Below, piece after piece: positions 12,831-61,276 of a stretch of 64,000 nucleotides of DNA. The position numbers and the translations under genes were made by a program. The first letter of the stretch is position 1. The number at the start of each line of letters is the position of its first letter. Origin of the DNA: Abditibacterium sp. Its GTDB lineage: Bacteria > Armatimonadota > Abditibacteriia > Abditibacteriales > Abditibacteriaceae. The notes under the pieces were generated by a model that saw only the letters and a program-made list of their open reading frames with translations, was not told where the DNA came from and ran no database searches. The stretch covers positions 1,920,001-1,984,000 of the forward strand of contig CBDASK010000003.1 in NCBI GenBank assembly GCA_965199495.1. The letters run 5' to 3'.

Positions 12831-15023
12831 GTGACCGTCGCACCTTCCACCGAAACCGTTAGTGAATCGCCCGAATTGCTCGCCGAATTGGAGCGCGTTT
12901 TCGGTTACACCGCGTTTCGCCCGCATCAGGAAGACGCGGTGCGCGCGGCGCTGGCGGGGCGCGATTGTCTGGTCGTGATGCCGACGGGCGCGGGCAAATC
13001 TTTAACGTTTCAGTTGCCCGCCGCGATCACGCCGGGCGTCACCATCGTGATTTCGCCGCTCATCGCTTTGATGCGCGACCAAATTATCGCGTTGCACGAG
13101 CGCACATCGTTTGTCGAAGAAGGCGCGTATTATCTCAATTCGTCGCAGTCGCAGGACGAACAACGCGACGTTTTAAGTTTGGTGCGCGCGGGCCGCGTGA
13201 AACTGCTTTACATCACGCCCGAACGATTGCGTTCGGGCGCGTTTTTGGATTTGCTGCAAAGCGTTAAAATCGCCAGATTAGTTGTGGACGAGGCGCATTG
13301 TATTTCGGAATGGGGCCACGATTTTCGGCCCGATTATCTGGCGATTAAAGATGTCGTCGCGACGTTGGGCGATGTGCCGCGTTTCGCAGTGACGGCAACA
13401 GCCACGCGGCGCGTGCAAGGCTCGATTGCCGAAAATCTGGGCATGCGCGAGCCGGAAATTATCGTCGGTGGATTTGACCGGCCCAACTTGCATTGGTCGG
13501 TCGTGCGCTGTAAAAACGACGCGGAGCGCGATAACAAATTATTCAAAGCTCTGCCGAAATTGATGTCGCGCGGCGGGAGCGGTTTGATTTATGTTTCGAC
13601 GCGCAAAGTCTGCGAAAAAATCGGCGAGTTGGCGCTCAACGCTTTGGCGCCGCTCGGCATTCGCGCGGGCTGTTACCACGCGGGCATGGAGAACGAATCG
13701 CGCTCGAAAATGCAGGAGGCGTGGTTGCGCGGCGACATTCCGGTTTTGGTGGCGACGAACGCGTTTGGCATGGGCATTGACAAGCCCGACGTGCGATTTG
13801 TCGTGCATTACGGCTATCCCGAATCGCCCGAATCGTATTATCAGGAAGCGGGCCGCGCCGGGCGCGACGGCAAAAAGGCGCGCGTTTTCGTGTTGAGCGT
13901 GCCCGCCGCCGACCGCAAACTGCGCGAATGGTTCATCACCAACGAAGCCATCGAAGCCGACGATTTTCAGAAAGTCGTGCAGAAATTGGGACGATTGGCG
14001 GGCGGCGAAGCGGTGCGCGTGCCGAGTTATTGGTGGGATCAGGAATTGGCGTGGCGCGAACCCAAACCGCGCGTGGTTTTGTCGCGCCTCGAACGCGCCG
14101 GTTTGCTCGAACGCTTGAGCGAAACGCCCGAAGGCATCGAACTGCGGCCAACCGTGAAATCCATTCCCGCCAATCAGATGGGCGAACTGCGGCGCGGATT
14201 GGAGCGCGATCTCAACGAACGATTCGAGCGCCTCAACGAAATGGCGGGTTACGTCAAAACCATCGAATGTCGGCGCGCGGCGCTGATCAATTATTTCGGC
14301 GACGCCGACGAATTTATCGGCGGCGGCGAAGGTTGCTGCGACAACTGCGACGCGCGCGCCAAAGGCATTGACCTGAGCGCGCGAAGTCCCAAAATGGCCC
14401 AGGGCCGAGTCGAGGCGCCCTCGCAAATCGGCGATATTTACGAACTGTTGCAGGCGCTCGATGCTTTATGGCCGAGCGTGGGCAAAACGCGACTGGCAAA
14501 AATTCTGCGCGGCTCCAACGCCGCCGATATGCAGCGCTATCTGGACGCGCCGGTTTATGGCGCTTTGCGCGGTGTTTCGGTCGCCAAAACCAACACGTTT
14601 TTGGAAGAATTACTCGACCGCGCGCTCTTGCATCAGGGCGACGAAGACGAATATTATGTCGTCAACGTGACGCGCGCCGGACGCGAGGCGTGGGAAGCGC
14701 GCGCCGGTGTGGACGATTTGGAATTGCCCGGACAAACCCGGCGTGGCTCCAGTTCGGCGCGGCGCGCCAGTTCGTTCGCGAATGATGACGACGACACCCT
14801 CGATGGCGTGGGCGGCGCGCTCTTCGAGAAGCTGCGCAACTGGCGCAGCGCGCGCGCGCGCGAAGAAAGCGTGCCGCCTTATATCGTGTTCGGCGACAAA
14901 GTTCTGCGCGAAATCGCGCGCCAACGCCCGTCGGATTTAGACGAATTGGGCGAAATTAGCGGTATCGGCCCGGCGAAATTAGATAAATACGGCGAGTTAG
15001 TTTTGGAATTATTGAGTGAATAA
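12831..15023 (+). CDS. recQ: RecQ-family DNA helicase with RQC and HRDC domains
   Basis: MPTGAGKSL, VDEAHCISEWGHDFRP, ATNAFGMGIDKPDVR, QEAGRAGRDG, CCDNC, VPPYIVFGD. Confidence 0.92.
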   Translation: MTVAPSTETVSESPELLAELERVFGYTAFRPHQEDAVRAALAGRDCLVVMPTGAGKSLTFQLPAAITPGVTIVISPLIALMRDQIIALHERTSFVEEGAYYLNSSQSQDEQRDVLSLVRAGRVKLLYITPERLRSGAFLDLLQSVKIARLVVDEAHCISEWGHDFRPDYLAIKDVVATLGDVPRFAVTATATRRVQGSIAENLGMREPEIIVGGFDRPNLHWSVVRCKNDAERDNKLFKALPKLMSRGGSGLIYVSTRKVCEKIGELALNALAPLGIRAGCYHAGMENESRSKMQEAWLRGDIPVLVATNAFGMGIDKPDVRFVVHYGYPESPESYYQEAGRAGRDGKKARVFVLSVPAADRKLREWFITNEAIEADDFQKVVQKLGRLAGGEAVRVPSYWWDQELAWREPKPRVVLSRLERAGLLERLSETPEGIELRPTVKSIPANQMGELRRGLERDLNERFERLNEMAGYVKTIECRRAALINYFGDADEFIGGGEGCCDNCDARAKGIDLSARSPKMAQGRVEAPSQIGDIYELLQALDALWPSVGKTRLAKILRGSNAADMQRYLDAPVYGALRGVSVAKTNTFLEELLDRALLHQGDEDEYYVVNVTRAGREAWEARAGVDDLELPGQTRRGSSSARRASSFANDDDDTLDGVGGALFEKLRNWRSARAREESVPPYIVFGDKVLREIARQRPSDLDELGEISGIGPAKLDKYGELVLELLSE

Positions 15024-15067
15024 ACTGGACGCTTGGAACACGGTTAAGAGCCTTGTATGTTAATAGT

Positions 15068-15246
15068 AGGGGCAAGAGTGACGCCGATAAGAGCCTGAGC
15101 TGCTTGCAAGCTGTTGGATAGAATTGCGCCTCTTGTCCCTGTTCTTTTTTGTCTTTTCAAGCCGGACAGTATCTTGAGCCGTTGCGAGTTGTGACTTGCA
15201 ACAGAGTTCGCATTGACAAGGCTGGCTGCAAGATAAAAACAAGAAC
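15068..15246 (+). ncRNA. IS110 bridge RNA (predicted; ends approximate)
   Basis: Stem AGGGGCAAGAG/CTCTTGTCCCT encloses TAAGAGCCT (15088-15096) and TTGGATAG (15114-15121), matching the flanks; second loop has ACAGTATCT (15166-15174) and ACAAG (15216-15220), matching the donor junction. Confidence 0.88.
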
Positions 15247-15278
15247 CCCTCGGTTTCCCTTTGTTTGAGGAGAATCTC

Positions 15279-16283
15279 ATGTTTTTAGGAATAGACGTTT
15301 CCAAAGCGACTCTCGATGCCGCGTTTCTGTCCACCCCAGACGCCGCCAAAACGCGCCACAAAGTCTTCGCCAACACAGAGCAAGGCCATCAACTTCTGCT
15401 CGACTGGTTGCAAGAGCTGCCTTCTACCAGTGCAGAAGCGCCCACATCCGCGCCCACGCTTCACGCGTGTTTAGAAGCCACCGGCATCTACGGCGATGCC
15501 CTTGCGCGCGCGCTCCACCAAGCCGGGCATCTTGTCTCGGTTGTGAACCCCGCTGCCGTGCGTGCCTTTGCCAAAAGCCAGCTCAAGCGCACCAAAACCG
15601 ACAAAGCCGATGCGCAACTCATCGCCCGCTTTTGCGCTTTGCACCGGCCCGCGCCCTGGAAGGCGCCCGCGCCGGAGATCGAGCATCTGCAAGCTCTGGT
15701 GCGCCGCATCGAGACGCTCCAGGAGATGAAGCAGATGGAAGCCAACCGCCTGGAAGTGACCTCCTGTGAGGTCGTTCAACACTCGTTGCGCTCTCACATC
15801 GACTATCTCGAACGGGAGATCGGGGCGACCAAAGACCAGATCAAAGAGCACATCCAGGCGCATCCTGAGTTGAACGAATCCGTGCGTTTGCTCTGCTCGA
15901 TTCCTGGCATCGCTGCGGCCACAGCCGCATTGATCCTGGCCGAGTTGGGCGAGATCGCGCAGTTCGAGAACGCGCGCCAGGTCGCGGCGTTTGCCGGATT
16001 AGCGCCGTGTTTGCGCGAATCGGGTTCGAGCGTGCGCGGCAAGCCGCGCCTGTCTAAGGTCGGTTCGCCGCGTCTGCGCAAAGCGCTCTTTTATCCGGCG
16101 ATGACGGCACTGCGCTGCAATCCCGTGATTAGCGAGTTGAAGCAACGTTTGACCCAGGCTGGCAAGTGTAAAATGCTGATCTTGGGTGCTGCGATGCGCA
16201 AGTTGCTGGTGTTGGCCTATGGCGTGCTCAAGTCCGGTCAGCCCTTCGATGCCGAGTTTTGTGCGCAGGGGCTGAAAAATTAA
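15279..16283 (+). CDS. IS110-family recombinase/transposase
   Basis: 334 aa after SD GAGGAG; LGIDVSK, LEATG, KTDKADA (DEDD), SIPGI, ESGSS serine motif, AAMRKLL. Confidence 0.96.
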   Translation: MFLGIDVSKATLDAAFLSTPDAAKTRHKVFANTEQGHQLLLDWLQELPSTSAEAPTSAPTLHACLEATGIYGDALARALHQAGHLVSVVNPAAVRAFAKSQLKRTKTDKADAQLIARFCALHRPAPWKAPAPEIEHLQALVRRIETLQEMKQMEANRLEVTSCEVVQHSLRSHIDYLEREIGATKDQIKEHIQAHPELNESVRLLCSIPGIAAATAALILAELGEIAQFENARQVAAFAGLAPCLRESGSSVRGKPRLSKVGSPRLRKALFYPAMTALRCNPVISELKQRLTQAGKCKMLILGAAMRKLLVLAYGVLKSGQPFDAEFCAQGLKN

Positions 16284-16294
16284 CGCCAAAACTC

Positions 16295-16315
16295 TTGACG
16301 GCCAACACAGTATCT
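16295..16315 (+). promoter_or_regulatory. -35 half of the IS110 circle-junction promoter
   Basis: TTGACG (16295-16300) lies exactly 17 nt from TATGTT (15056-15061) once the ends are joined at the CT core. Confidence 0.8.
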
Positions 16316-16352
16316 ATCCAAATAGGAAAACCAGAATGCGACTGAGCGATGG

Positions 16353-16430
16353 GAGCGGGGCTGGCGCACCCTTCCAATCTGGCGTAAGTCCGAGGAAAGT
16401 CCGCCGATTGGAAGAGTGCGTCAGCCCCGC
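16353..16430. repeat. REP-like palindrome inside the MITE
   Basis: GCGGGGCTGGCGCACCCTTCCAATC...GATTGGAAGAGTGCGTCAGCCCCGC; perfect version at 61188-61276. Confidence 0.8.
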
Positions 16431-16505
16431 ATCTTCAATACTTCGCGTCCTATTCGGATAGGTTCTAAATCGCGCGCTGTCAGACGTTGGTAAAGGAGAA
16501 TCCAA

Positions 16506-17381
16506 ATGCGACATTTTTTCACTTGTTGTGCCGTTACGCTGCTGACCACTCTGGCGGCTCATGCAGCCACGCCGACGGCGGCGTTACAATTAATGCCCGC
16601 CAAAGCCATTAGTTTGCGCTGGCAGAAACTGCCAACCGACACTGATAACGCGGTTTGGCTACATATCTATTGCGTGCCCAAAAGCCGCGACCCCGAATTG
16701 AAAAACATGGGCGTGGACGAAACTGGCCCGATTACACGCGCAAATATTACAAATGGCCCGTCGTTGGCGTCGTCGCCGTTCTGGCTCGATGTTTTCGCCG
16801 ATGCCAACGCCAAGCGGCGCTTGAATTCGGTCAAATTCGAGGAAGGTCACGATGTGCAAGACATCACATTGCGCTGGCTCGAACCCAAATCGCGGCGCGG
16901 CCCCGTCGTGCTGATGAAGTTTGGTTACACGCATTGGTATGAATGGCAAACCTTTACTTTCGCGCAGGGCTGGACGAAACCAGCGCACGCGCAAACCTTT
17001 TTCTATGGCGGCGAAGGCGAAATTTATAACGATCTCCGTTTCGACCGCACCGACGCGCAGGGCCATTTAATCGTCGTCGAAGATGAAGGTCTGGAAAACA
17101 ACAAAGAGCGCACCAATATCTATCGCTGGAATGGGCGCGAGTGGGACGATAAAACATTGAAATATTTCGTGGTCGGCGCTTCGGTCAAAACCAAAAGCGC
17201 CGCCGACGAGATATTGCGCAAGCGTGGTTACGGCGAAGTTTTGCGCTCGAACGATTATCCTAAATTAAGTCCGGGCTATTGGATTTGGATTACAGGACGG
17301 TTTCGCACCAAAGCCGAAGCCGACGAGATCGTCGCGCATCTGGATAAAAATACGCCCGCCGTCGTGCGGCTGGCGCGCTGA
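16506..17381 (+). CDS. Secreted hypothetical protein with possible C-terminal SPOR-like region
   Basis: SD AAGGAG; signal peptide ending AAHA; C-terminal YPKLSPGYWIWITGRFRTKAEA. Confidence 0.6.
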   Translation: MRHFFTCCAVTLLTTLAAHAATPTAALQLMPAKAISLRWQKLPTDTDNAVWLHIYCVPKSRDPELKNMGVDETGPITRANITNGPSLASSPFWLDVFADANAKRRLNSVKFEEGHDVQDITLRWLEPKSRRGPVVLMKFGYTHWYEWQTFTFAQGWTKPAHAQTFFYGGEGEIYNDLRFDRTDAQGHLIVVEDEGLENNKERTNIYRWNGREWDDKTLKYFVVGASVKTKSAADEILRKRGYGEVLRSNDYPKLSPGYWIWITGRFRTKAEADEIVAHLDKNTPAVVRLAR

Positions 17382-61187: not shown

Positions 61188-61276
61188 GCAAAGAGCGGGG
61201 CTGACGCACCCTTCCAATCTGTATGCTTTCGATGAAAGCATACAGATTGGAAGGGTGCGTCAGCCCCGCTCTTTGC
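61188..61276. repeat. Perfect 43-bp-arm hairpin (same family as 16353-16430)
   Basis: GCAAAGAGCGGGGCTGACGCACCCTTCCAATCTGTATGCTTTC-GAT-inverse. Confidence 0.85.

Follow-up and report, generated by a model that had tools for sequence, protein, structure and literature searches.

An IS621-like IS110 element with predicted guides that spell the junction of an IS5-family inverted repeat, and its likely insertion there, in Abditibacterium sp.

Closest described systems

In work from 2003, Partridge and Hall are said to have found that IS4321 and IS5075, members of the IS1111 group, target the terminal inverted repeats (TIRs) of Tn21-family transposons. The target in Tn21 is a Tn3-family inverted repeat (IR) of 38 bp. 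The locus described here is alike in that an IS110-superfamily element sits inside the TIR of another transposon; however, IS4321 and IS5075 are IS1111-group elements with subterminal repeats and a Tn3-family IR as target, whereas our element belongs to the IS110 group and occupies an IS5-family end along with its duplication. IS621 of Escherichia coli, which targets REP sequences (PMC11208160, PMC3184786), shares with our element the PF01548 and PF02371 domains, the DEDD residues plus a Ser, a CT core, a 5' non-coding region, a 9-nt left guide with a right guide of at least 4 nt, and a repeat as target; the donor-loop guides are near-identical as well, with the IS621 RNA showing ACAGTATC and GCAAGG (PMC11208160, PMC11208158). 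Unlike that of IS621, the target here is the TWA/TIR junction of IS5-family elements and not a REP, and the right guide extends to 8 bp; longer natural right guides have been noted for bridge RNAs (PMC11208160).

Other described systems share single features with this locus. IS1111 of Coxiella burnetii has 20 of 21 copies in QMITE2, a REP-carrying MITE of 150-190 bp (PMC5896051), but its target is the internal REP of that MITE, in contrast to the TIR, external to the hairpin, targeted here. ISEc21, of the IS110 group, targets the DDE codons of IS3-family transposases, and ISMch6 represents a natural redirection (PMC11187229); our element resembles these in being aimed at another insertion sequence and in a guide change that tracks the target change, but ISEc21 has a coding-sequence target and lies in another branch of the family. 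As for the MITE, Nezha and ISNpu3 form a MITE-parent pair (PMC3184786), and the unit described here likewise shares its short TIRs with an autonomous IS seen in other species but not in its own, and has a short duplication and a hairpin core; unlike Nezha, its core belongs to a 95-copy hairpin family found mostly without these TIRs.

Both the mechanism and the targeting of transposon ends and MITEs by IS110/IS1111 elements are already known. There was no report of an IS110 element aimed at an IS5-family TIR in the literature searched, although ISfinder, most subscription papers and bioRxiv supplements, which lay outside its scope, may list one; the parts searched of the supplements of PMC11208160 and PMC11187229 held no statement on MITE or IS5-end targets. 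New here are a well-anchored natural target, namely the end of an identified IS5-family element, and a guide and TIR that change together between two genomes. The window element supplies a natural 8-bp right guide, and it is one of a series of recombinases, ~55-70% identical and with near-identical donor ends, that address three target kinds (attC-like, IS5 ends and REPs); the series is useful for learning how bridge RNAs are naturally reprogrammed and whether elements of this kind suppress their host transposons.

The element, its predicted bridge RNA and its host MITE

The window, which denotes the whole 64,000-nt stretch of DNA analyzed, is G000:C3:1920001-1984000 of a genome assembled in 3 contigs and 95% complete; positions given without a contig are those of the window. 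The IS110 locus lies between a RecQ gene (end at 15023) and an ORF of 291 aa (16506-17381, +), the latter of which starts like a signal peptide and matches no Pfam family. Its features are listed below.

15045-15047, +: left TAA of the 3-bp duplication, also the first 3 target bases; duplicated at the far end of the unit
15048-15053, +: first 6 left-TIR bases, GAGCCT (GAGC at 15048-15051, then the CT recombination core at 15052-15053)
15054-16315, +: IS621-like IS110 element, 1262 bp counting one CT core, intact
15060-15245 (approximate limits), +: predicted bridge RNA, two hairpins with internal loops
15088-15096, +: left target guide TAAGAGCCT, 9/9 to both target sites
15114-15121, +: right target guide TTGGATAG, reverse complement CTATCCAA; 8 bp at the window site, 4 bp at copy 2
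15166-15174, +: left donor guide ACAGTATCT, identical to 16307-16315, the right end of the IS
15216-15220, +: right donor guide ACAAG, reverse complement CTTGT, i.e. the core plus the first 3 left-end bases
15279-16283, +: DEDD recombinase, 334 aa, PF01548 and PF02371 both over cut-off
16295-16300, +: predicted -35 box TTGACG, 17 nt from TATGTT (15056-15061) once the ends are joined
16316-16326, +: remaining left TIR ATCCAAATAGG, resuming after the IS
16355-16430, +: REPIN-like hairpin, 25-nt arms, 92% complementary
16449-16465, -: right TIR, read inward GAACCTATCCGAATAGG, empty; by inspection 16/17 against an autonomous IS5-family end in relative G020
16466-16468, +: right TAA of the duplication; inward TTA, mismatching guide position 2
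61188-61276, no strand assigned: hairpin copy without TIRs (core C3:1981195-1981269 plus a 7-nt extension)
within C3:733571-732298, -: copy 2 of the IS110 element, identical to the window copy

The genome harbors exactly two copies of the element, and comparison of both fixed its ends, placing CT cores at 15052-15053 and 16314-16315 and giving the donor junction as ACAGTAT-CT-TGTAT. As is typical of the IS110 group, the CT core is present at both junctions in both copies; no end-to-end inverted repeat of the element's own was seen among the listed repeats. The best solved relative of the recombinase is IS621 (8wt6, E 2e-72), and the catalytic residues D6, E66, D108, D111 and S248 are all in place. 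Another IS110-group trait, a junction promoter (TTGACG-17 nt-TATGTT), is predicted from sequence only in the computed end-to-end joint, and no sigma-70 match was found in the linear form. Contigs of 4 sequencing runs contained neither circle joints nor empty-site joints (0 of each), counts that are uninformative on absence. A 19-nt direct repeat (79%) between 16324-16342, in the inner left arm of the MITE, and 16494-16512, in the start region of the downstream ORF, is probably due to chance.

The 5' non-coding region, again as in the IS110 group, is predicted to adopt a two-loop fold carrying four located guides; the fold of this region has an energy of -73 kcal/mol (z -3.14), with 0 of 200 shuffles as good, and the predicted RNA has no Rfam match. 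The RNA itself being predicted, its guide layout was assigned after IS621 (PMC11208160, PMC11208158). With this layout, the guides agree with the window target at 15/15 bases, i.e. the TAA plus 12 TIR bases (left 9/9, right 8), which is the coverage that had been proposed in a preliminary description of this DNA, made from its letters. We also considered co-variation of a donor-loop handshake and rejected it: its GC agrees with target positions 6-7 at this site but is also present, without fitting, in attC-type relatives.

Removal of the IS in silico leaves exactly 156 bp between two TAAs, and the TIRs of this unit, GAGCCTATCCAAATAGG and GAACCTATCCGAATAGG, are alike at 15 of 17 positions. The coordinates, TAA duplication, unit length and imperfect 17-bp TIRs in the preliminary description all hold, as does its view of the right TIR as mismatched and unoccupied, given that this TIR, read inward, has 2 mismatches to the 11-nt core target and carries no insertion. 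The unit displays the features of a MITE, comprising TIRs with a duplication, ends shared with an autonomous partner, short length, absence of coding sequence and presence in multiple copies; it does not qualify as a currently active MITE, with its sisters diverged and no cognate transposase found in this 95% complete genome.

IS5-family ends, target sites and relatives of the element

The pattern TWAGAGCCTRTCY matches in 17 of the 27 family genomes, with far fewer matches for a reversed control. Inward-facing pairs of these ends, 888-927 bp apart, enclose DUF4096 and DDE ORFs in four relatives (G020, G001, G010 and G014); the ORFs match PF13340 and, in three of the four elements, PF13586/PF01609, with the second ORF of the G001 element known by tblastn only and the Pfam scan covering the other three. 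The 8 ends of these 4 autonomous elements are identical to the window TIR at 13-16 of 17 positions, and TWA is duplicated at 17/21 TIR pairs in relatives and absent as a duplication from 4/21, several of these pairs being copies of the same elements. By these matches, the window end is a real IS5-family TIR, in keeping with its earlier assignment. A TWA duplication and a GAG start are traits of the IS1031 subgroup of the IS5 family, to which we presume the parent of these ends belongs, Pfam giving only DUF4096 and DDE_Tnp_1. The search that had been proposed for an autonomous IS5-family transposase with the same TIR succeeded in these four relatives but not in the present genome, where tblastn with the G020 protein yielded at best 32% over 53 aa and searches with PF13340, PF01609 and PF13586 returned only elements with other ends (GAGTCTGTGCTCGAA, AGGACTTACGCA and AACCAATGGTGCGG). 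For two resident DDE elements, one copy of each (C3:4412345-4413559 and 2527138-2528097) starts 20-30 nt from a hairpin copy.

The TIR family in this genome is small and degenerate. It has several members, and each of the two IS insertions is in repeat DNA; a single-copy TIR, or another IS copy in non-repeat DNA, would have spoken against the preliminary description. The exact 17-nt query of that description has 0 exact matches in the assembled genome, 1 at up to 1 mismatch, 6 at up to 2 and 17 at up to 3. The 11-mer TAAGAGCCTAT occurs 5 times on C3, against an expected 0.09-0.18 (Markov models of order 2-5); all 5 sites lie in hairpin or palindromic repeats, 2 of them split by the IS and 3 empty (C3:1876885, 3233484 and 3233529). 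Of 14 empty ends that were scored, these 3 contain the perfect 11-mer, another differs from it at a single core position and the remaining 10 carry two or three mismatches. In total, we found 7 complete units and 1 half unit with these ends; the hairpin core is common to the half unit and 4 of the complete ones, and the other 3 have different cores. Three complete sisters are 70-80% identical to the window unit and the half copy 86%, with no two alike; a true duplication is missing in 3 of the 7 complete units. The closest sister, C3:1876724-1876885, has the same length, TAA on both sides and an empty perfect 11-nt site. Taken together, we infer that the target pool in this genome is small, worn and not being renewed.

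Two further units merit description. C3:3233484-3233529 is a perfect palindrome of 46 bp plus that carries the 11-nt target, unoccupied, at each tip; its symmetry runs beyond the TAA, which suggests arm copying and not transposition. In C3:3648917-3649080, a doublet of GTAG REPs, of the REP family targeted by a sister IS110 element in relative G004, is bounded by IS5-type ends; both kinds of target are united in this one element, neither of them occupied.

Copy 2 of the IS lies at TTAAGAGC-CT-ATTT, where it directly adjoins the foot of a long, nearly perfect hairpin from the family present in the window unit, and has no far TIR. This site offers the full canonical target (9 + 4 bases) and an 11/11 match, but its TIR part amounts to just 8 bases and it falls short of a complete MITE; a longer TIR variant that it suggested, TWAGAGCSTRTTTAC, is present in 0 of the 27 family genomes. 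Since a chance 11-mer is unlikely beside this hairpin (the zones reaching 120 nt from its arms make up 0.64% of C3), the site of copy 2 is most likely a TIR stub. Both copies of the IS110 element (n = 2 in the genome) are at the base of the same hairpin family and, because they adjoin it, hairpin and TIR are inseparable at these sites.

This hairpin family comprises 95 paired copies of 65-84 nt, dispersed, each with two inverted repeats around a variable spacer. The preliminary description had pointed to the copy at 61188-61276; that copy is indeed present and without TIRs, but it is one among 95 and not a lone sister. Because no RAYT gene is flanked by the same repeat (0 of 6 Y1_Tnp loci have the hairpin repeat within 1.5 kb at up to 5 mismatches), we name the hairpin only REPIN-like. 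Our script pattern scored the TIR at only 5 of 95 hairpins. Other motifs border the hairpin as well: TAGACCTCTTGC on both sides in 2/95 and on one side in 1/95, and an ATAGC..TT motif on both sides in 12/95 and on one side in 10/95, compared with 0 and 3 of 190 ends in the control. One hairpin appears to be the cargo of at least three kinds of MITE-like shells; examples of hairpins with other transposon-like ends are given here.

C3 202903: hairpin with other transposon-like ends
C3 818807: hairpin with other transposon-like ends
C3 2066278: hairpin with other transposon-like ends
C3 2333070: hairpin with other transposon-like ends
C3 2581143: hairpin with other transposon-like ends

In a genome of the same genus (G006; loci L072, L083, L085 and L086), the same IS5-type TIRs enclose several REP-like hairpins, one of them related to that of the window.

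IS110 homologues at E <= 1e-40 are found in 11 of 24 family genomes. In G012, of the same genus, a frameshifted IS110 element, 59% identical in amino acids, interrupts TTAGAGC-CT-GTCTTCAC, which forms the end of a ~206-bp MITE that has an empty sister unit 70% identical to it. Its right guide is CTGTCTTC, fitting the variant TIR; an autonomous DUF4096 and DDE element with the variant end also resides in G012, and a second, transposase-less remnant in that genome has a left guide, TAAGAGTCT, that fits the variant end GAGTCTGTCTTCAC. Since the guides of G012 fit the variant ends of G012, guide and TIR change together. The left guide of the window element includes a non-palindromic TAA, so an element with a TAA or TTA duplication, reading TAA|GAG at one end and TTA|GAG at the other, would offer it one perfect tip and one mismatched tip; end preference is not strict, given that in G012 the element occupies a TTA end and its guide has a G at position 2.

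A metagenome scan using the left-end pattern with the guide left free (a pattern built from 7 loci and leaning to this clade) recovered 49 loci; with 13 genome loci, and with the duplicates L104, L127 and L142 left out, these formed a set of 61 rows, both ends being seen in 31. By left flank, 38 rows are attC-like, 5 REP, 3 IS5-TIR (2 of them from this genome), 9 other and 6 IS-to-IS junctions, and the left guide, scored over its 7 non-core bases, agrees with the flank at 6 or 7 of them in 46 of 53 rows. Most relatives found carry near-identical donor ends aimed at attC-like sites. These attC-like targeters (L020, L023, L024, L110, L111, L119, L120, L139 and others) are of the IS110 group with a 5' non-coding region and lie inside the L' box, attC targeting being named in the literature covered for IS1111-group elements; by a loose regular expression, 9 of 18 rebuilt non-duplicate sites fit the attC box layout (R''-spacer-L''...L'-spacer-R'), with several of the misses incomplete. 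A scan of GTDB added 12 distant loci, none over 51%, of which two were used in the tree only, and the left-end pattern had 0 matches in viral contigs.

In a tree of 31 rows, chosen by us from loci with long transposase matches, the window element is sister (99/97) to the element of G004, which has a GTAG REP as target in 5/5 copies; the G012 element belongs to the same wider clade (97/92) without being sister to that of the window, and attC-like targeters fall inside and around this clade. As a control, the 11-nt REP target of the G004 element occurs 157 times in this genome, with neither IS copy in one of them.

A lichen metagenome from another study (run X2) holds a contig, ~98% alike, that starts at 15045 after 47 other letters, and a second one that stops aligning at 16326, the last TIR base; the two contigs are unjoined and the places of their mismatches are not given. 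They hint at a further TIR insertion. In the recombinase gene, the X2 version of the IS carries additional stretches of 3 and 18 bases, both in frame (at window 15418 and 15646).

Proposed insertion and its alternatives

We think it likely that this IS621-like IS110 element, with a predicted guide that spells the junction of the TAA and an IS5-family TIR, inserted at the CT there and thereby split the left end of an old 156-bp miniature element. By analogy with IS621 (PMC11208160, PMC11208158), the IS ends would join and the -35/-10 promoter at the junction would drive the RNA; a preprint argues that the excised IS form is single-stranded and that the donor stays. The RNA would then pair the donor ACAGTAT-CT-TGT with the target TAAGAGC-CT-ATCCAA, again as in IS621, with recombination at the CT. 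With its non-palindromic TAA, the left guide may prefer one IS5 tip over the other, and it probably serves the ends of autonomous IS5 elements and of MITEs alike. The expected product is GAGCCT, the IS and then ATCCAAATAGG, neither half of which would be a full TIR. An IS5 transposase could probably make no use of such a split end, which would leave the unit immobile; immobilization of the MITE by the IS110 element is plausible, in line with the position of the cut behind the sixth TIR base, but the point may be moot in the absence of a transposase. We surmise that the benefit to the IS110 element would be a site that is non-essential by nature.

Recognizing that both copies sit beside a hairpin, we weighed whether insertion needs the adjoining REPIN-like stem-loop in addition to the guide, in which case the landing pad would be a TIR beside a hairpin and not IS5 ends generally. 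The position of 2/2 copies within ~40 nt of a hairpin core, compared with 0.64% of C3 at 120 nt or less from an arm, favors this, as do the two empty perfect sites without the window hairpin (C3:3233484 and 3233529) and a report that a target stem-loop gates ISPpu10 (10.64898/2026.03.19.712850). However, the perfect site beside a hairpin at C3:1876885 is also empty, the host MITE in G012 is, by inspection, without such a hairpin family, and TIR and hairpin co-occur anyway in 4 of 7 complete units, so that insertion beside a hairpin is to be expected; a requirement for the hairpin seems unlikely to us. In its strong form, the picture given in the preliminary description would have the MITE still spreading, with its end a renewable supply of fresh safe sites and the IS110 element freezing each copy that it enters. 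Autonomous partners and young MITEs in relatives, e.g. the near-identical 141-bp units in G010, show the kind of setting this would require, a partner could have been missed in a genome 95% complete, and resident IS5 elements with GAGTCTGTGC ends might act in trans; nonetheless, with sister units 70-86% identical and no two alike, just 3 perfect sites empty and no cognate transposase (tblastn at most 32% over 53 aa, and families with other ends only), the self-spreading, renewable part of that picture is not supported, and we regard ongoing spread in this genome as improbable.

In the remaining alternative, what look like TIRs would be the outermost parts of a long palindromic REP, and the IS an ordinary REP targeter of the IS621 type. 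The window unit does fold as one long hairpin, some units are palindromic to their tips (C3:62484 and 3233484), and the G004 sister element sits on GTAG REPs in 5/5 copies. This reading is largely refuted by the same 17 bp bounding DUF4096 and DDE genes in four relatives; in addition, the sequence from TIR to hairpin in the window unit is not palindromic (extension 0) and a mere 5/95 hairpins scored a TIR, and we find it scarcely credible. Keeping to an IS5-family TIR as the target, one may go further and postulate an RNA-guided anti-transposon parasite that tracks TIR variants across genomes, cripples IS5 ends including those of autonomous elements, arose by natural reprogramming in a lineage that retained one donor and switched among attC, IS5 ends and REPs, and may help to drive IS5 families extinct in its hosts. 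This extension, which we consider doubtful, needs an insertion in an autonomous IS5 element, for which the 3 TIR-type sites with both flanks known give no example (0/3). If true, such a guide-tracking suppressor of IS5 families would have a guide that reads the junction of duplication and TIR, which exists only where an IS5-family element has integrated.

Joints between IS ends were also observed in relatives: in the metagenome contigs L105 and L145 (also L128 and L134), the IS right end is joined to the IS left end, L105 and L145 being IS-length contigs with a 127-nt terminal overlap, i.e. circles or collapsed tandems of clade members. At locus L022 (G020:C1, just upstream of 2348954), an attC-type IS110 relative appears to be itself interrupted within the bridge-RNA region by TTA followed by GAGCGTGTTCTT; this would be a reciprocal nesting, in which the interrupting element has an IS5-like end.
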